NCBI GenBank assembly: GCA_036390755.1
Contig: DASWBH010000389.1
Span: forward strand, 7,269-71,268
Origin: Thermoanaerobaculia bacterium
GTDB lineage: Bacteria; Acidobacteriota; Thermoanaerobaculia; Gp7-AA8
Direction of reading: 5' to 3'
DNA length: 64,000 nt
Shown: positions 2,736 to 43,690 of the stretch, piece after piece
Position numbering within the stretch: position 1 is the first letter of the stretch
Layout: each line of letters opens with the position of its first letter
Notes under the pieces: model-generated
Seen by the model: the letters and a program-made list of their open reading frames with translations, nothing else
Told to the model about the DNA's origin: nothing
The model's database searches: none
Made by a program: the position numbers and the translations under genes

Positions 2736-3909
2736 GGCCGACGACCACACGGTTGCGTCCGAGACGCTTGGCTTCGTAGAGACGTTCGTCGGCGGTATGG
2801 AACAGCACGTCGGCGAGCTCGCCGTCGTCGGGGAAGATCGCCGCACCGATGCTGATCGTGACCTGCGTTCCGTCGGCCGCTGCGGGAAGCCCGGCGACGT
2901 TCGCGCGAATGCGTTCGGCGACGCGCGCGAGCGCTTCCGCGTCGGCGAGCGGGACGATCACCGCGAACTCCTCGCCGCCGTAACGCGCCGGGAAGTCGAC
3001 CGCGCGCACCGTCTCGCGGATCACCTGCGCGACGCGCTGAAGCGCCGCGTTCCCGGCGAGGTGCCCGAAGCGGTCGTTGTACATCTTGAATCGATCGAGA
3101 TCGAGGATGAGGACGCCGAAGCGCTCGGCGTATCGCATGGCGCGGGCGATCTCGACATCGCTCCGTTCGCGAAATGCCCGGAAGTTCGGGAGTCCGGTGA
3201 GGTCGTCGGTCCGGGCGCGTGCGTTGAGCTCGTCGGCCATGTGGTTGAAGGCAACGCCAAGCTTCGCGACGTCGAGGTCACCGCCCACCGGCGCACGCGC
3301 GGTCACGTCTCCGGCGGCGATCCTGTCCGCGGCTTCAGCAAGCTTCTCGATCGGACGGACCACGCGGTGGTGCGTGAGCGTGGCCAGCGCAAAGCTGAGG
3401 ATGACGATGATCCAGGCGACGCCGATGCCGGTCAGCATCATGCCGTTCGCGTCGTGCTCGAGGGTCGGGAGTTGCCGGGCGATCACGCTCTTGTGCGCCT
3501 CGATGAGGCGCTGAGCCTCGACCACGATGCGAACCGACTCGGCGTTGAGCTCGCCCTGCGGCGCGCGCGTAAGCAGCAGCATGCGATACGCGCGGACCCG
3601 CACGCGCAGGGCCGAAGTGTCGATGGATTGGACGGCGCGGGAGTCGAGGAGTTGCTCGACGGCGTCATAGCGGTCGACGGCGCTGGCGTCAGTTCCCTGC
3701 AGCTTTCCGCGAAATGCGTTCTGAGCGCGAATGAGCTCGTCGAGACGCCCGATCGCTTCGGTCTCGACCGAGATCAGGCGCGACCACCGCTCCTGCGACT
3801 GCCTGGCCCGCCAGCTCAGACCGAACGTGATCAGAAGGAGAGCGCACGCGAATGCGGCCGTCAGCCACGTCACCCGCGTTCGCAACCGGATCCTGGACAC
3901 TTGAAACAA
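2701..3909 (-). CDS. Membrane-anchored diguanylate cyclase (GGDEF domain)
   Basis: N-terminal TM helices and a C-terminal GGDEF domain with RYGGEEF and DRFKMYNDRFGHLAGN. Confidence 0.85.
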   Translation of the reverse strand: MFQVSRIRLRTRVTWLTAAFACALLLITFGLSWRARQSQERWSRLISVETEAIGRLDELIRAQNAFRGKLQGTDASAVDRYDAVEQLLDSRAVQSIDTSALRVRVRAYRMLLLTRAPQGELNAESVRIVVEAQRLIEAHKSVIARQLPTLEHDANGMMLTGIGVAWIIVILSFALATLTHHRVVRPIEKLAEAADRIAAGDVTARAPVGGDLDVAKLGVAFNHMADELNARARTDDLTGLPNFRAFRERSDVEIARAMRYAERFGVLILDLDRFKMYNDRFGHLAGNAALQRVAQVIRETVRAVDFPARYGGEEFAVIVPLADAEALARVAERIRANVAGLPAAADGTQVTISIGAAIFPDDGELADVLFHTADERLYEAKRLGRNRVVVGPIVPRAAQSGG

Positions 3910-5177
3910 GGATAATCCGCCGCGTGATCGATTTGGAATCGATCTACCTGCAGGCGCTCGGGCAGTGCTCGCCCGAAAGACTGATCGCAGTGCGCAGAGC
4001 GCGGAGCGCAGGCTTCAAGACGGTCGTTGCCATCGGCAAGTGCGCCGGGCGGCTGGTGGACGGCCTCGGCGACTTCGAGCGAGCGTTTGTGGCGATTCCG
4101 AAGGGGTATCCGCCACCCGTCATTCTGAGCGCCGAAGAGCGCGAAGAATCTGGGCGGGGGCAAGCGAGCCACCACCCGGATTCTTCGCCGTCTTCGCGGC
4201 TCAGGATGACACGCGGCGGCCACCCCGACATCGACGACGACAGCTTTCGCGCAGGCGACCAGCTCCTTCGTTTCATCGATGAAAGCGACGATGTTCTCTT
4301 CCTCATCTCCGGTGGTGGCTCGGCATGCGTCGAGGTTCCGCTCGATCCTTTCACGCGCGACGAGATCGTCACGACGAACCGGCAGCTCGTCGCATCCGCG
4401 CTGCCGATCGGCGACATCAACATCGTGCGGAAGCATCTCTCCGCCATCAAAGGAGGCCGCCTCGCCGCGCGCGTACGCGGACGCTCGCTGACGCTCGTCT
4501 ACTCCGATGTGTCGACCGGCGCGATCGGCGACGTCGCGTCCGGCCCGACCGTCGCCGACTCATCCACCAACGAGCACGCCGCGCAGCTCCTCGAACGGAT
4601 CGGCGGTTCCGCGCGCGTCGTCGAAAAACTTCGCGATCCGAAGTTGCCTGAGACGATCCGCGACGTCGCGAGCTCGCGTGCGGAGATCATCGCGGACAAC
4701 ATGACGCTGACCGCCACCGCGGCGCGTCTCGTCCGCGGCGCCGGATTCGAGCCGGTCCTCTGGCCGGATCAGATCGAGACACCGGTCGACGAGGCCGCGC
4801 AGTTTCTTGCGGATCGCTGCAGGTCGCTTCGGCGACGCGAAGTGCTCGTCGCCGGGGGCGAGCCGACCGTCGCGCGGCGCGGCAGCGGACGGGGCGGCCG
4901 CTGTTGTGAGCTCGCCGTCCGTTTCGCGCTGGGCAGTGACAATCCTGCACTTTTCGGCAGCTCCGACGGCCTCGACGGAAGCAGCGGCATCGCCGGCGTC
5001 GTCGTTCATGGCGGGGCGGGGCGGATCGCCGGCACACTTCGCAAACTTCTCGACACCTCTGATTCACTCGAGGCCGCGCACTTGATCGGGCGAGCCGTTA
5101 TCATTCCCCCGACGGGGAACAATCTCCGCGATCTCTTTCTCGTAGCGGCAGATAACGGCGTAATGGCTCAACCTTAG
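3852..5177 (+). CDS. Glycerate 2-kinase (MOFRL family) carrying an in-frame palindromic-repeat insertion
   Basis: Motifs VVAIGKCAGR, GGHP, VLFLISGGGSACVEVP and the MOFRL C-terminus are present. A loop insertion VILSAEEREESGRGQASHHPDSSPSSRLRMT is encoded by the repeat at 4119-4210. The start is uncertain: the first 58 nt overlap the GGDEF gene, and an alternative GTG lies near 3925. Confidence 0.75.
   Translation: MRPSATSPAFATGSWTLETRIIRRVIDLESIYLQALGQCSPERLIAVRRARSAGFKTVVAIGKCAGRLVDGLGDFERAFVAIPKGYPPPVILSAEEREESGRGQASHHPDSSPSSRLRMTRGGHPDIDDDSFRAGDQLLRFIDESDDVLFLISGGGSACVEVPLDPFTRDEIVTTNRQLVASALPIGDINIVRKHLSAIKGGRLAARVRGRSLTLVYSDVSTGAIGDVASGPTVADSSTNEHAAQLLERIGGSARVVEKLRDPKLPETIRDVASSRAEIIADNMTLTATAARLVRGAGFEPVLWPDQIETPVDEAAQFLADRCRSLRRREVLVAGGEPTVARRGSGRGGRCCELAVRFALGSDNPALFGSSDGLDGSSGIAGVVVHGGAGRIAGTLRKLLDTSDSLEAAHLIGRAVIIPPTGNNLRDLFLVAADNGVMAQP
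4119..4210. repeat. Imperfect palindromic repeat of about 92 bp, family 1 copy 1, in-frame inside the glycerate kinase CDS
   Basis: gtcattctgagcgccgaagagcgcgaagaatctggg ... cccggattcttcgccgtcttcgcggctcaggatgac. The two arms are reverse complements of each other. It is about 90 percent identical to the copy at 30223-30310. Confidence 0.8.
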
Positions 5178-20946: not shown

Positions 20947-21810
20947 TCAGTCCTTCGGAAAGTCGTTGGATCGGACAATCTGGTGCGAGCTCGTGATGAA
21001 CAGCGCGGCGACGCCGTGAGCGTTCGCCCATCGCAGCCCTTCATCCGGCCCCATCACATACAACGCAGTGGAGAGCACGTCGGCGGTCAGTGCGTCGCGC
21101 GCGATGACCGACACGGAGCCGCGCGGCGGCAGCGCCTCTCCGGTGCGCGGATCGATGATGTGCGTGAAGCGGCGGCCGTTCACGACGAACGACTTCTCGG
21201 AGCCGGAGCTCGTCGAAAGCGAGGCGTCGCGCAAAGTGACGTTCACCGTCGCGACGTCGCGCTGCTCCGGATCGGCAATTGCGACGCGGTAATCGCCGCG
21301 AACGGCAATCTGTCCGCCGAAGTTGATCATCGCTCGCGGCGCGTCGACGACCGAGAGCATCCGATCGAGCGCGTAGCCCTTGCCGAAACCGCCCTCTTCG
21401 AACGCAGCACGACCGGAGCGGATCGACGCGAGCGCGCCCTCGATTGCATCGTGCGACGGCAGCGCGCCGTCAGCGCGAGTGCGCCACGCGTCGATGAGCG
21501 GCCGCACCTGCGGCTCGAACGCGCCGCCGGTTCGCTCACGCCACGCGATGACGGAGTCGAGCAACCCGCGCAATTCCGGCGAAGCAGCTTGGCCGCGGTT
21601 CACGCGCACGAGCTCGCTATCGTCGCGCCACGTGCTCAGCATCCGCTCGATGCGGGCCGCTTCTGCAAACGCAGCGTCGATCTGCTTCGCGTCGCCGTCG
21701 ACAGCAATTTCGCACACCGTTCCCATCAGGTACCGCGCCCTGGCGATTTCTGCTGACGCTGCAGTGATGGGAACGAGTGTGAGCGCGATGAGTGCCGTTG
21801 CGGCTCTCAT
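20947..21810 (-). CDS. apbE: FAD:protein FMN transferase (ApbE family)
   Basis: Signal peptide MRAATALIALTLVPITAASA. ApbE-like core (..RYLMGTVCEIAV.., ..GGFGKGYALD.., ..FGGQIAV..). 4-nt overlap with the FTR1 gene upstream. Confidence 0.8.
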   Translation of the reverse strand: MRAATALIALTLVPITAASAEIARARYLMGTVCEIAVDGDAKQIDAAFAEAARIERMLSTWRDDSELVRVNRGQAASPELRGLLDSVIAWRERTGGAFEPQVRPLIDAWRTRADGALPSHDAIEGALASIRSGRAAFEEGGFGKGYALDRMLSVVDAPRAMINFGGQIAVRGDYRVAIADPEQRDVATVNVTLRDASLSTSSGSEKSFVVNGRRFTHIIDPRTGEALPPRGSVSVIARDALTADVLSTALYVMGPDEGLRWANAHGVAALFITSSHQIVRSNDFPKD

Positions 21811-22574
21811 CGCGCTCCTAACGCCGCGCGGTTGTGTGCGCGTGCGCGATCGAGAATCGACGCCGCCGCAAGCCACGCCGCGCAGACGCCGACCATCGCC
21901 ACCGAGAACCAACGGCCGTACACGCCGACCGGAGAGTAGGGCTCCGTCGCCACATGAATCGCTTCGCTATGCGGCAGCAGCCCCGCCTCGGAGAATTCGT
22001 GGATCGAGTAGAAGACGATCTGGATGGTGAACAACAGGAGAAACAGTCCGGTCACCTGGAAGAACCGCTTGATGTTCACGCGATGGCCGAAGTGCGCCCA
22101 CAGCCACGACATCGTCGCGGCGGCCGCGATGCCGAGCGCGCAGCCGAGCCAGAAGCCGGCCTGGCGCACCTGAATCAGCATCAACGCCGCCTCCATGCCT
22201 TCGCGGGTGACCATCAGAACCGTGAATCCGAAGACGGCCGCGGTGGCGATGAGCGGCGACTCATGAGCCGAGTGTTGATCGAGCCGCGCTTCCATCTGCC
22301 GCTTCATGCGCGGCGCGGTGCGCCAGACGTGAATCACGAACGACGCGACGAGGATCGCCGCGACGAGTCCGAGGACGCCTTCCCACATCGGCTGGTTGAC
22401 GCTCTGCAGCACGTATCCGAGAGCGAAGCTTGCGACGACGGATACGGCGATGCCCCAATAAACAGCGGGCCGCAGCCAGTCGCGTCCGGTCTTGCGGAGG
22501 TACGCGAAGATGATCGCGACGGTGAGGAAGGCCTCGAAGCCTTCGCGGAAAACGATGATCAGGGCGTTGAGCAT
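21807..22574 (-). CDS. High-affinity iron permease, FTR1/EfeU family
   Basis: Two REXXE motifs (REGFEAFL and REGMEAAL) in a polytopic membrane protein. Confidence 0.85.
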   Translation of the reverse strand: MLNALIIVFREGFEAFLTVAIIFAYLRKTGRDWLRPAVYWGIAVSVVASFALGYVLQSVNQPMWEGVLGLVAAILVASFVIHVWRTAPRMKRQMEARLDQHSAHESPLIATAAVFGFTVLMVTREGMEAALMLIQVRQAGFWLGCALGIAAAATMSWLWAHFGHRVNIKRFFQVTGLFLLLFTIQIVFYSIHEFSEAGLLPHSEAIHVATEPYSPVGVYGRWFSVAMVGVCAAWLAAASILDRARAHNRAALGAR

Positions 22575-29774: not shown

Positions 29775-30221
29775 ATGCCGAAGTTGACGGAACAGATCCG
29801 CGCCGACCTCACTGAGTCGATGAAAGCGCGGACGGCCGTGCGCACCTCGACGCTGCGCATGTTGCAGTCGGCGATGAAGTACCAGCAGATCGAGGCCGGT
29901 CACGAGCTGTCGGATGAAGAGGTGCTCGCCGTCATCCGCAAAGCGGTGAAGCAGCGCCTCGACTCGATCGAGCAATACACGAAAGGCAACCGTCCCGAGC
30001 TCGCGGCGAAAGAGCAATCGGAGCTCGATCTGTTGAAGACGTATCTGCCGGCCGAGTTGACCGACGCGGAGCTCGAGTCGGGACTGCGCGACATCATCTC
30101 CTCGACCGGCGCGCAATCGAAAAAGGACCTTGGCAAAGTGATGAAGGAAGCGACGGCAAAGTACAAAGGGCGCGCGGACGGGAAGAAGATTCAGGAGATT
30201 GTGAGCAGACTGCTGACATAG
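29775..30221 (+). CDS. GatB/YqeY domain protein
   Basis: MPKLTEQIRADLTESMKARTAVRTSTLRMLQSAMKY.. A GGAGAGAAG SD lies 6 nt upstream of the start. Confidence 0.85.
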   Translation: MPKLTEQIRADLTESMKARTAVRTSTLRMLQSAMKYQQIEAGHELSDEEVLAVIRKAVKQRLDSIEQYTKGNRPELAAKEQSELDLLKTYLPAELTDAELESGLRDIISSTGAQSKKDLGKVMKEATAKYKGRADGKKIQEIVSRLLT

Positions 30222-30222
30222 T

Positions 30223-30310
30223 GTCATTCTGAGCGCCGTAGAGCGCGAAGAATCTGGGCGGTGGATTGCCACCTCCCAGATTCTTCGCCGTCTTCGCGGC
30301 TCAGAATGAC
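30223..30310. repeat. Imperfect palindromic repeat of about 88 bp, family 1 copy 2, filling the yqeY-moeB spacer and contributing the moeB ATG
   Basis: gtcattctgagcgccgtagagcgcgaagaatctggg...cccagattcttcgccgtcttcgcggctcagaATGac. It begins 1 nt after the yqeY TAG stop. Confidence 0.8.
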
Positions 30311-31424
30311 TCTCACCGACCACGAACGCACTCGCTACTCGCGCCACTTGCTCCTTCCCGAGATCGGCGAAGAAGGACAGGAGAAGCTCAAGCGCGCCTC
30401 AGCGCTCATCGTCGGCGTCGGAGGCCTCGGCAGTCCGGTGGCGATGTACCTGACCGCCGCCGGCGTCGGCAGGCTCGGTCTCGTCGACTTCGATACCGTC
30501 GATGAGACGAATCTGCAGCGCCAGATCCTGTTCGGCGAATCGGCCGTCGGCGAGCGCAAGCTCGACGCGGCCTGGAAGCGCCTGCGCGACATGAACCGCA
30601 ACCTGCGCATCGAGACGTTCAACGACCGACTCACATCGCGCAACGCCATGCCGCTGATGGAGCCATACGACATCATCCTCGACGGCACCGACAACTTCGC
30701 GACGCGGTATCTCGTGAACGACGCCTGCGTCATGCTGGGCAAGCCGAATGTTTACGCGTCGATTTATCGATTTGAAGGACAGGTATCGGTCTTCGATGCG
30801 ACGAAGGGACCCTGCTATCGCTGCCTGTATCCTGATCCGCCGCCGCCGAATCTCGTCCCTTCCTGCGCGGAGGGCGGAGTTCTCGGCGTGCTGCCGGGAG
30901 TCGTCGGCTGCTTACAGGCGACCGAAGCGATCAAGATGATCACCGGAGCGGGAGAACCGCTGATCGGAAGGATGCTGCTCTTCGACGCGCTGCGCATGAG
31001 CTTCCGCTCGCTGCGCGTGCCCAAGAATCCGAATTGCAAAGTGTGCGGACCGGATCCCGAGATCCGGCAACTGATCGACTATGAGGAGTACTGCGGACCC
31101 TTGAACAACATGGAAATTACGGCGCGGGAACTGGCCGATCGCATCGCGCGCGGGGAGCGGCTGTTCCTTCTCGACGTGCGCGAGCCGATCGAGTGGGACG
31201 CCGGCCATCTCGAACACGCGACGCATATCCCGCTGCAGCAGGTGCCGCGCAGTCTGGACTCGCTGCCGCACGACACCGAGATCGTCGTCTACTGCCGGAG
31301 CGGCGGACGGAGCGGCCGCGCCCAGCAGTACATGCTCAGCAACGGCTTCAAGAGCGTGAAGAATCTCGCCGGCGGACTTATCGCCTGGGCGCGCGAAGTC
31401 GATCCTTCGGTGAAGGTTCGCTAG
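30306..31424 (+). CDS. moeB: Molybdopterin/thiamine-biosynthesis adenylyltransferase with C-terminal rhodanese domain (MoeZ/MoeB-like)
   Basis: ..RYSRHLLLPEIGEEGQEKLKRASALIVGVGGLGSP.. ThiF/MoeB fold with CxxC pairs, and a C-terminal rhodanese (..VVYCRSGGRSGRA..). The ATG lies inside the repeat arm. A longer GTG-initiated ORF from 30261 also reads through the repeat. Confidence 0.85.
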   Translation: MTLTDHERTRYSRHLLLPEIGEEGQEKLKRASALIVGVGGLGSPVAMYLTAAGVGRLGLVDFDTVDETNLQRQILFGESAVGERKLDAAWKRLRDMNRNLRIETFNDRLTSRNAMPLMEPYDIILDGTDNFATRYLVNDACVMLGKPNVYASIYRFEGQVSVFDATKGPCYRCLYPDPPPPNLVPSCAEGGVLGVLPGVVGCLQATEAIKMITGAGEPLIGRMLLFDALRMSFRSLRVPKNPNCKVCGPDPEIRQLIDYEEYCGPLNNMEITARELADRIARGERLFLLDVREPIEWDAGHLEHATHIPLQQVPRSLDSLPHDTEIVVYCRSGGRSGRAQQYMLSNGFKSVKNLAGGLIAWAREVDPSVKVR

Positions 31425-35956: not shown

Positions 35957-38206
<2,250 letters not shown>

Positions 38207-42769: not shown

Positions 42770-43690
42770 CTATGAACGGCGGTCGCAGATAAAACGCGCG
42801 ATGTCCGCCAGATAGTTCACAGGGCCGGCGATCATATCAGCGTTCTCTACGGCCGTCCGGAGGAGGGCCGCGACCTCGGCCCGTGCCGCTTCCGCACCAA
42901 CGACGGCCGGATACGTCAGCTTCCCCTGCGCCGCGTCCTTCCCGGCAGTCTTGCCGAGCGTGGCGGAGGACTGCTCCCGATCGAGGAGATCGTCGACGAT
43001 CTGGAAGGCGAGACCGAGCGAGCTGCCGTAGTGGGCGAGGCGTACGAGCTGGTCATCGCTGCCCCCGCCGAGGATCCCGCCGAGCAGGACGGACGCGGTG
43101 ATGAGCTTGCCGGTCTTGTTGCGGTGGATGAACCGGACGCGCCGCAGTCCTCCCTCTCCCGCGTACGGGAGAGGGTGGCGCGAAGCGCCGAGTGAGGGCG
43201 TTTCCTCCAGATCCGCGACCTGCCCACCGATCATCCCGGTCGAGTCGACCGCCTGAGCGATGGTCGTGATCGCGCGCAGCTGCCGCTCCGCGGGGATGCC
43301 CGCAACCGGCCGCGCAAGCCACGAGAACGCCTCGGTCAGCAGCGCATCGCCCGTGAGGATGCCGATCGCCTCGCCGTAGACCACGTGCGTCGTCTTGCGC
43401 CCGCGGCGGAGATCGTCGTTGTCGAGCGCCGGCAGGTCGTCATGGACGAGCGAGTACGTGTGGATCAGCTCGAGCGCGGCGAACGGAACGAGCAGCGGCT
43501 GCACGGCGGCGCCAACCGACTCGGCCGCCGCAATCGCGAGGATCGGCCGGATCCTCTTGCCGCCGCCGAGGACGGCGTAACGCATCGCCTCGTGAATGAC
43601 GGCAGGCTCGGTGTCCGGCTCTGGCAGGTTCCCGGTCAGCGTCTGTTCGACCAGCGCGCGACGATCCTGGAGAAAGGATTCGAGTCGCAT
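42770..43690 (-). CDS. ispA: Farnesyl/geranyl diphosphate synthase, with an in-frame family-2 repeat insertion
   Basis: LIHTYSLVHDDLP and FQIVDDLLD. The repeat at 43145-43198 inserts ..TPSLGASRHPLPYAGEGG.. between the DLEE and IHRNKTG motifs. Confidence 0.9.
   Translation of the reverse strand: MRLESFLQDRRALVEQTLTGNLPEPDTEPAVIHEAMRYAVLGGGKRIRPILAIAAAESVGAAVQPLLVPFAALELIHTYSLVHDDLPALDNDDLRRGRKTTHVVYGEAIGILTGDALLTEAFSWLARPVAGIPAERQLRAITTIAQAVDSTGMIGGQVADLEETPSLGASRHPLPYAGEGGLRRVRFIHRNKTGKLITASVLLGGILGGGSDDQLVRLAHYGSSLGLAFQIVDDLLDREQSSATLGKTAGKDAAQGKLTYPAVVGAEAARAEVAALLRTAVENADMIAGPVNYLADIARFICDRRS
43145..43198. repeat. Short repeat with internal palindrome, family 2 copy B, in-frame inside ispA
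   Basis: cagtcctCCCTCTCCCGCGTACGGGAGAGGGtggcgcgaagcgccgagtgaggg. It is inverted relative to copy A, although both host genes are on the minus strand. Confidence 0.75.

Follow-up and report, generated by a model that had tools for sequence, protein, structure and literature searches.

The ispA gene of a Thermoanaerobaculia bacterium (Acidobacteriota), analyzed here within a 64,000-nt stretch of contig DASWBH010000389.1 (called the window below), carries between two of its catalytic motifs a 57-nt palindromic segment that is read in frame with the enzyme. The segment is best understood, with a probability of roughly 80%, as a singlet of a repetitive extragenic palindromic (REP)-type repeat, here called family 2, that has become fixed in a permissive loop of the enzyme, a hotspot for several families of palindromes, and that is carried there as a passenger. 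There are precedents for in-frame insertion of REPs and of Rickettsia palindromic elements (RPEs), and UvrD helicases are among the hosts; what merits further study is the hotspot and a family that spans phyla. In-frame selfish palindromes in essential genes are among the few known one-step routes to new loop sequence in bacteria, and outside Rickettsia such insertions have been documented only sporadically.

A palindromic repeat in the reading frame of ispA

Positions 43145-43201 match the reverse complement of 36204-36260, a segment of pcrA, at 54 of 57 nt (95%), forming a 57-nt inverted pair (I1). The initial annotation had placed the repeat at 43145-43198, about 90 percent identical to the pcrA copy; its placement stands, while both the extent (57 nt, to 43201) and the identity have had to be revised upward. 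At up to 3 mismatches the 50-nt core has 2 matches in the window, against 0 expected from 100 shuffles. A covariance model (R1), built on alignment A3 of nine gap-free units of equal geometry from other organisms and none from the window, recovers the ispA copy (43152-43198, + strand) at 57.9 bits (E=3.4e-13) and the pcrA copy (36207-36253, - strand) at 61.4 bits (E=4.2e-14); run with its filters off, it finds no third family-2 copy in the window. Two MAFFT alignments of all units (A1, A2) were left out of the model because they misplaced the variable lengths of the hairpin 1 loop and of hairpin 2. The shuffles and the E values rule out chance similarity of the two copies. The features of the two units and their hosts are these:

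43145..43201, + strand (hairpin 1 to tail): family-2 unit, a singlet, read on the - strand as IspA T164-L182, TPSLGASRHPLPYAGEGGL; from the inverted pair, the covariance model and the codon count
43152..43175, + strand: hairpin 1, CCCTCTCCC-GCGTAC-GGGAGAGGG, 9-bp stem; from the pattern match, the covariance-model alignment and stable folds
43177..43189, + strand: hairpin 2, GGCGC-GAA-GCGCC, 5-bp stem with a GAA triloop; from the covariance-model alignment
43190..43198, + strand: conserved 3' tail, GAGTGAGGG (family consensus GGRTGAGGG), holding the TGA that closes the one blocked frame
42770..43690, - strand: host ispA, trans-prenyl diphosphate synthase (farnesyl or geranylgeranyl diphosphate synthase), 306 aa; from Pfam, PDB homologs, AlphaFold2, Foldseek and synteny
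36204..36260, - strand (hairpin 1 to tail): second family-2 unit, translated from the - strand as PcrA SPPSPARGRGWREAPGEG, part of the disordered linker that leads to the C-terminal tudor domain; from the inverted pair and the covariance model
35957..38206, - strand: host pcrA/uvrD, superfamily-1 helicase, 749 aa; from the Pfam domains UvrD-helicase, UvrD_C and PcrA_UvrD_tudor

The ispA open reading frame (ORF) reads ...GGQVADLEE-TPSLGASRHPLPYAGEGGL-RRVRFIHRNKTG..., the 57 nt of the repeat supplying exactly 19 in-frame codons. The pcrA ORF reads ...WREKPL-SPPSPARGRGWREAPGEG-VQNV..., with the copy in the linker between the end of UvrD_C (aa 602) and the start of the tudor domain (aa 702). Both hosts are minus-strand genes in which the unit is oppositely oriented, as had been noted from the sequence at the outset and as the ORFs and the inverted pair bear out. 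The element is a short GC-rich palindrome that forms stem-loops, as a REP should: it has the 9-bp and 5-bp stems listed above, and it folds at -43.2 kcal/mol as mRNA-sense RNA (z=-3.65) and at -26 kcal/mol as DNA (z=-4.2).

The host enzyme has every hallmark of a short-chain trans-prenyl diphosphate synthase: two Asp-rich motifs, GQxxD, KT and an all-helical fold. It matches Pfam PF00348 at E=1.6e-52 and PDB homologs at 1e-70; the first and second Asp-rich motifs (FARM, DDLPALDNDD, residues 84-93; SARM, DDLLD, 233-237), GGQVAD (155-160) and KT (192-193) are all present; and its AlphaFold2 model (predicted template-modeling score, pTM, 0.86) superimposes on solved farnesyl and geranylgeranyl diphosphate synthases with Foldseek TM scores of 0.75-0.85. 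The gene lies in a conserved xseA-xseB-ispA-dxs cluster. The Pfam match, the intact motifs and a TM score of ~0.8 agree with the original observation that the insert lies between DLEE and IHRNKTG and disturbs neither motif nor frame. Its structural placement is another matter. The model shows a helix at 153-163 (GGQVADLEE), coil at 164-178 with a local confidence score (pLDDT) below 50 at 169-173, and a helix at 179-207 (FIHRNKTG), the second Asp-rich motif following on the next helix (212-239); the insert thus sits before the FIHRNKTG helix, one helix earlier than the loop preceding helix H to which it had been assigned. In the usual lettering of prenyl synthases, this is the F-G loop and not the loop directly before the helix of the second Asp-rich motif. 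Nor does the enzyme gain the 18-19 residues first attributed to the insert: measured against the plain loop of its relatives, 13 residues long, the increase is ~12 residues, and 5xn5 and 7my6, the nearest homologs with solved structures, are 10-11 residues shorter at this site.

Five of the six reading frames of the window copies are open, the blocked frame being the one that holds the TGA of the tail. The initial annotation had taken the absence of stops on both strands for an RPE-like property, which does not survive comparison with composition-matched shuffles of the same length: these average 4.3 open frames and family 2 averages 4.7, so that short length and high GC content account for most of the effect. 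This control also disposes of the absence of stops on both strands as an adaptation. Different hosts read the element in at least three frames and in either orientation, a pattern that speaks against selection for any peptide.

Family 2 across phyla and its relation to known repeats

The bacterial genomes, one per species, were scanned with the pattern GGGAGARGGTGSC-N(5-22)-GNRTGAGGG. At least 120 loci (L089-L208) carry it, with 154 copies among the matches listed, to which the counts in this and the next two paragraphs refer. Nearly all of them have one layout: CCYTCTCCC-loop-GGGAGARGG (hairpin 1), a TG linker, a variable self-complementary hairpin 2 and the tail CGGRTGAGGG. The 5' arm of hairpin 1 is exact in 115 of the 154. 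Hairpin 2 covaries: a perfect stem, 4 bp or longer, is found in 79% of 110 units, as against 1.5% of shuffles, in 71 distinct sequences. Its loop is most often a GAA triloop; C-GAA-G hairpins are unusually stable in DNA. The organisms include Rhizobium, Bradyrhizobium, Mesorhizobium, Caulobacter, Xanthomonas, Dyella and Geobacteraceae; Alpha-, Gamma- and Deltaproteobacteria are represented, together with Planctomycetes, Verrucomicrobia, Terriglobia, Thermoanaerobaculia, Binatia and others. The phyla or classes that share the architecture and conserved blocks of family 2 number at least seven, and viral contigs share them too.

None of the 154 copies is intragenic (judged by spanning ORFs and a test of codon-position GC content, GC3), and intergenic copies are also found in relatives of the window organism (e.g., L086, 5471-5516). 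Family 2 is thus mostly extragenic, in the manner of REPs, with the two window copies as exceptions. Inverted doublets occur at many of the genome loci (e.g., L096, L101, L102, L106, L164, L165 and L184), and several loci carry 2-7 copies (genome and viral scans, at least 120 loci each). The extragenic habit and the many inverted doublets therefore establish family 2 as a REP-type extragenic repeat with doublets like those of REPINs (REP doublets forming hairpins).

Three linked positions divide the units into two subtypes: A, with CCTTCTCCC / GGGAGAAGG / GGATGAGGG, and G, with CCCTCTCCC / GGGAGAGGG / GGGTGAGGG. The A and G types occur in the ratio 77:30, with 3 mixed units. Many doublets combine one A-type with one G-type unit; if the two units of such a doublet paired over long range, one strand would have G-U wobbles and its complement A-C mismatches. 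The pattern is also abundant in predicted viral and prophage contigs (IMG/VR scan, L213-L292 among the matches listed), some of which hold dense clusters of seven copies (e.g., L246, 4066-4785; L242, 5639-8117).

Widespread as this two-hairpin repeat is, it has no entry in Rfam 15: nothing in the window reaches a gathering score, permissive thresholds (E up to 10) return only chance-level matches and none over the repeat, and in 14 loci taken from other phyla the repeat is likewise matched by nothing. A text search of the literature for the conserved blocks (GGGAGAAGGTG, GGATGAGGG and others) returned unrelated papers only. The element-encoded peptides, searched against a collection of 5.8 billion proteins, gave 3 candidates and one weak match, the query probably being too low in complexity.

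The closest precedents are the GTAG- and CGTC-tagged REP superfamilies of Di Nocera, De Gregorio and Rocco (2013), mostly extragenic GC-rich palindromes that often form inverted dimers and of which a minority lie wholly inside ORFs, where they encode 20-30 residues; their hosts include replication and repair genes such as a UvrD/REP helicase, and the authors argue that the inserts occupy flexible linkers or loops (PMC3733652). Family 2 resembles these in its short GC-rich sequence, its mostly extragenic habit, its inverted dimers and a UvrD-helicase host. It differs in lacking the GTAG/CGTC tag (the window flanks are CAGTCCT...GGGCGT, and those elsewhere vary) and in having two hairpins and a conserved tail, seen in many phyla, where the tagged REPs have a single stem-loop. 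A multi-family hotspot inside an enzyme loop, found here, is not described in PMC3733652. Another palindromic repeat of the window, family 1, begins with CGTC at one copy.

REPINs, as described by Bertels and Rainey (2011), are mobilized by RAYTs (REP-associated tyrosine transposases) in systems that are lineage-specific and vertically inherited (PMC3116915, PMC3337134). Family 2 shares with them the inverted doublet that forms a long hairpin, singlets beside doublets and the extragenic habit, the window copy itself being a singlet; it departs from them in spanning phyla and in entering viral and prophage contigs. RPEs (Ogata et al. 2000) are inserted in frame in unrelated housekeeping genes at positions compatible with the fold; they are ~100-150 bp long, specific to Rickettsia, and nearly half of them lie in ORFs, as summarized in PMC10969869. 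The likeness to RPEs drawn in the initial annotation holds for the phenomenon, since the window copies too are in frame at fold-compatible positions, and fails for the family: measured against the features of RPEs given there, family 2 is set apart by size (57 nt, ~100 nt for a doublet) and by its absence from ORFs among the 154 copies. [quoted passage not shown] They are comparable as small non-autonomous repeats with inverted symmetry that fuse in frame with a host ORF. MITEs are recognized by terminal inverted repeats that stem from an insertion sequence (IS) and by target-site duplications; family-2 doublets are inverted overall, and filled and empty sites compared with each other reveal no flank duplication.

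The IspA loop, an insertion hotspot for several families

A metagenome scan with IspA yielded few close relatives, and exact-protein look-ups took its place. Among 120 orthologs (69-81% identity) the stretch from GGQVADLE to FIH varies from 10 to 48 residues. The DNA of the loop was compared at twelve orthologous ispA loci:

L081, L082, L083: full inverted family-2 doublet
L084: left family-2 unit; a 39-nt in-frame deletion has spared 14 nt of the right one
window: right family-2 unit only
L087: remnant of hairpin 1
L085: family-1 doublet
L209, L210: two GGACAGGC-type palindromes
L211: GCGGCGG-type palindrome
L086: plain loop (empty site)
L088: no family-2 element

The elements foreign to family 2 are strong hairpins as well, their loops folding at -41 to -81 kcal/mol (L085, L209, L210, L211), as compared with -7.5 kcal/mol for the empty site in L086. 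The site has been colonized repeatedly, by family 2 and by at least four other palindromic elements, and acts as a multi-family insertion hotspot. It also turns over at near-strain-level divergence. L082 (JGI 3300078045), with a family-2 doublet, and L209 (GCA_036382495.1), with an unrelated 54-nt palindrome, agree at 811 of 819 ispA positions when the loop is set aside (99.0%) and at 265 of 269 positions in xseB; over ~3 kb their divergence of ~1% is evenly distributed, and the substitutions nearest the loop, at -42 and +179 nt, are not part of any cluster. Confinement of the difference to the loop favors insertion or replacement in situ over import of a divergent allele.

A further loop variant, NVGPTLSRPRPTGESALR, occurs in P0003, P0005, P0010 and P0013 as tandem PTGESALREPR units, extending the loop to as many as 46 residues in P0013, and could represent either another repeat family or tandem expansion in place. 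A related variant, P0007 (L088, 10001-10918; RLSPTGEPALR), folds at -38.5 kcal/mol.

At this one position of IspA, uncultured soil and sediment Thermoanaerobaculia thus provide a natural series of empty site, doublet, either half of the doublet, remnants and four other families. Together with the nearly identical L082/L209 pair, the series makes arrival, decay, and structure targeting as opposed to filtering by selection accessible to test, and it bears on how much disordered sequence a prenyl synthase loop beside the active site can take. Repeat-derived peptides of this kind inflate apparent protein diversity in metagenomic catalogues.

How the window came by its singlet can be read in two principal ways. 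The one we tentatively put first, at odds somewhat short of even, makes it the surviving right half of an ancestral REPIN-like doublet whose left half was lost by in-frame deletion. The doublets of L081-L083 occupy the same position, and their right unit has the orientation and frame of the window copy (GA[SA]RHPLP.AGEG); L084 shows the reciprocal half-deletion and L087 retains only its hairpin 1 remnant; the right junctions are loosely alike, GGGAGAGGG-CAGTGCG in L081 and GGGAGAGGG-AGGACTGCG in the window; and the REPIN model takes singlets for decaying remnants of doublets (PMC3337134). Common descent from a doublet is harder to reconcile with the scatter of carriers over a neighbor-joining tree, a rough one without support values, on which the nearest neighbor of the window IspA (P0027) has the plain 13-residue loop. 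The window copy is, moreover, nearer to the pcrA copy of its own genome than to the ortholog copies at its own site (81-86% of 57 nt), and the ispA and pcrA copies have a common 7-nt flank, CAGTCCT, that is partly also present in an intergenic Thermoanaerobaculia copy (L180).

These same facts speak for the other possibility, to which we give only a little less credence: that the singlet did not derive from a doublet and is either a separate, more recent insertion at the hotspot or the product of gene conversion from a copy in the same genome. The 54/57 match to the pcrA copy, flanks included, and the plain loops of sister lineages are what this history would leave behind; several families have supplied the hotspot with independent events, and its content changes between alleles that are 1% divergent; and the PcrA linker of P0162 has taken up an independent insertion in the opposite orientation. 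The agreement with the right unit of the doublets in position, orientation and frame would then be coincidental, orientation and frame agreeing by chance in ~1 of 6 cases, and two copies cannot separate gene conversion from new insertion.

Exchange of palindrome-bearing loop alleles between lineages by homologous recombination, in place of transposition into the site, is an unlikely third course. The scatter of family-2 carriers on the tree would suit it, as would the presence of very similar doublet alleles in backgrounds only 75-80% identical at the protein level. The L082/L209 pair, however, shows no imported tract of divergent flanking sequence around the loop, and recombination leaves the origin of five unrelated palindromes at one site unexplained.

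The insert as a probable passenger, the pcrA linker and other palindrome sites

On the reading preferred here, the copy would have become fixed inside ispA in this Thermoanaerobaculia lineage because its 57 nt divide by three, no stop occurs in the frame that is read and the receiving surface loop is disordered and tolerant; intragenic copies would survive only where these three conditions coincide, in a permissive disordered loop or linker. Since the catalytic motifs and the fold have been kept, the insert is most probably a passenger with little or no selective effect, tolerated and not recruited, with the encoded peptide presumably a by-product. The element itself would spread by means of a transposase that depends on hairpins or single-stranded DNA, of the REPIN/RAYT or IS200/IS605 type. 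Reliance on hairpins in single-stranded DNA is suggested by the hairpins and doublets of the family and by swaps that look scarless.

Several observations weigh against this account. No RAYT or other transposase adjoins any copy that was examined, whole genomes lying outside this search; between the copies in L106 and L142 lie genes for a small membrane protein and an enoyl-CoA-hydratase-like protein, neither of them a transposase. No target-site duplication or clean junction between empty and filled sites is definable, so that the case for mobility comes from the distribution of copies and not from observed movement. Both window copies are intragenic, which is odd for an otherwise extragenic family, although the sample is small and the window has little intergenic space. 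The insert loop is close in sequence to K192, the diphosphate-binding Lys known from prenyl synthases. Finally, the pcrA unit is better conserved than its host. The copy is absent from the orthologs in L084, L086 and L088 (85-88% identity) and present in the same frame in the closest ortholog, P0122 (89%; L212, 3504-3550, 62.2 bits); the unit core is identical at 46 of 47 positions between the window (36207-36253) and L212, whereas the genes are only 82.8% identical (p ~0.0015). Something beyond selection at the protein level must therefore keep the sequence of the unit, which is not in strictly neutral decay; the pattern suggests gene conversion, structural constraint or re-insertion.

A bolder view, which we regard as doubtful, makes the IspA loop, the PcrA linker and the yqeY|thiF spacer actively targeted landing pads, at which palindromes insert or replace one another through recognition of hairpin structure, and family 2 a previously undescribed two-hairpin repeat shared across phyla. 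Its conserved blocks and covarying second stem would then reflect recognition by a widespread protein, whether transposase or host factor. If true, this would explain both the unrelated palindromes in 99%-identical alleles and a repeat core more conserved than the host gene.

A role at the RNA level, in which the hairpin is kept in ispA for mRNA stability, as a barrier to RNases, for ribosome pausing or for tuning of ispA/dxs, with the peptide incidental, has a slimmer chance than any of the histories considered above. The stable fold of the mRNA-sense strand, the strong hairpin formed by every element found in the loop and the conservation of the pcrA core would all be in keeping with it, and REPs that lie downstream of genes are believed to work as elements of the RNA (PMC3733652). 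The plain, unstructured loops of many orthologs (-7.5 kcal/mol) nevertheless imply that the hairpin is dispensable; moreover, elements of unrelated families occur in both orientations, strains that are 99% identical differ in the element they carry, and Rfam offers no match.

Very improbable is recruitment of the extra loop as an adaptive feature of the protein, a regulatory lid or interaction surface whose coding DNA happens to derive from a repeat. In prenyl synthases this loop lies near the active-site side, with the diphosphate-binding KT following a few residues later. Inserts of the RPE type have been put forward as a source of raw material on which protein evolution can draw (PMC10969869). 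The insert is modeled, though, as low-confidence coil, and its peptide is not conserved: orthologs differ in frame, orientation and family, and many have no insert. An assembly artefact or chimeric join at the repeat, the misassembly that the initial annotation had held in reserve, is effectively excluded: the source is a short-read metagenome-assembled genome (MAG), and 57-nt repeats can confuse assemblers, but the ORF runs in frame into ortholog-like sequence on both sides, xseA-xseB-ispA-dxs synteny is kept, independent JGI, ENA and NCBI assemblies of other samples have elements in the same loop, and an identical IspA is on record from a 96.8-kb contig of a Thermoanaerobaculia (Acidobacteriota) MAG.

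The PcrA linker (window ~36150-36350) is itself variable, ranging from 34 to 91 residues among the 53 parsable orthologs of 120 (P0122-P0241). It contains repeat-like peptides (GPRTEDRG, GGLKPAA and GGQAPRLSGSAPD), family-2-like units in other frames (P0152, P0177, P0182), the opposite-orientation unit of P0162 and, in L084, a (GCCTCGG)n tandem repeat. The spacer between yqeY and thiF-moeB holds a family-1 doublet in the window (30220-30313), and the same spacer in L212 (8348-8431) holds a different, AT-rich palindrome, GGGGTCAGGTCTTCAATTTTCAG...CTGAAAATTGAAGACCTGACCCC, indicating turnover at one intergenic site too. Another family-1 doublet (GTCATTCTGAGCGCC...GGCTCAGGATGAC) lies at 4119-4212, inside the ORF 3852-5177 (+ strand) of a DUF4147/MOFRL glycerate-kinase-like gene and within its DUF4147 domain match; it is the third intragenic palindromic insertion in the 64 kb. 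An isolated inverted repeat at 21781-21817 (GAGCGCGATGAGTGCCG...CGGCTCTCATCGCGCTC), with 17-nt arms, 94% complementarity and a 3-nt loop, belongs to neither family.

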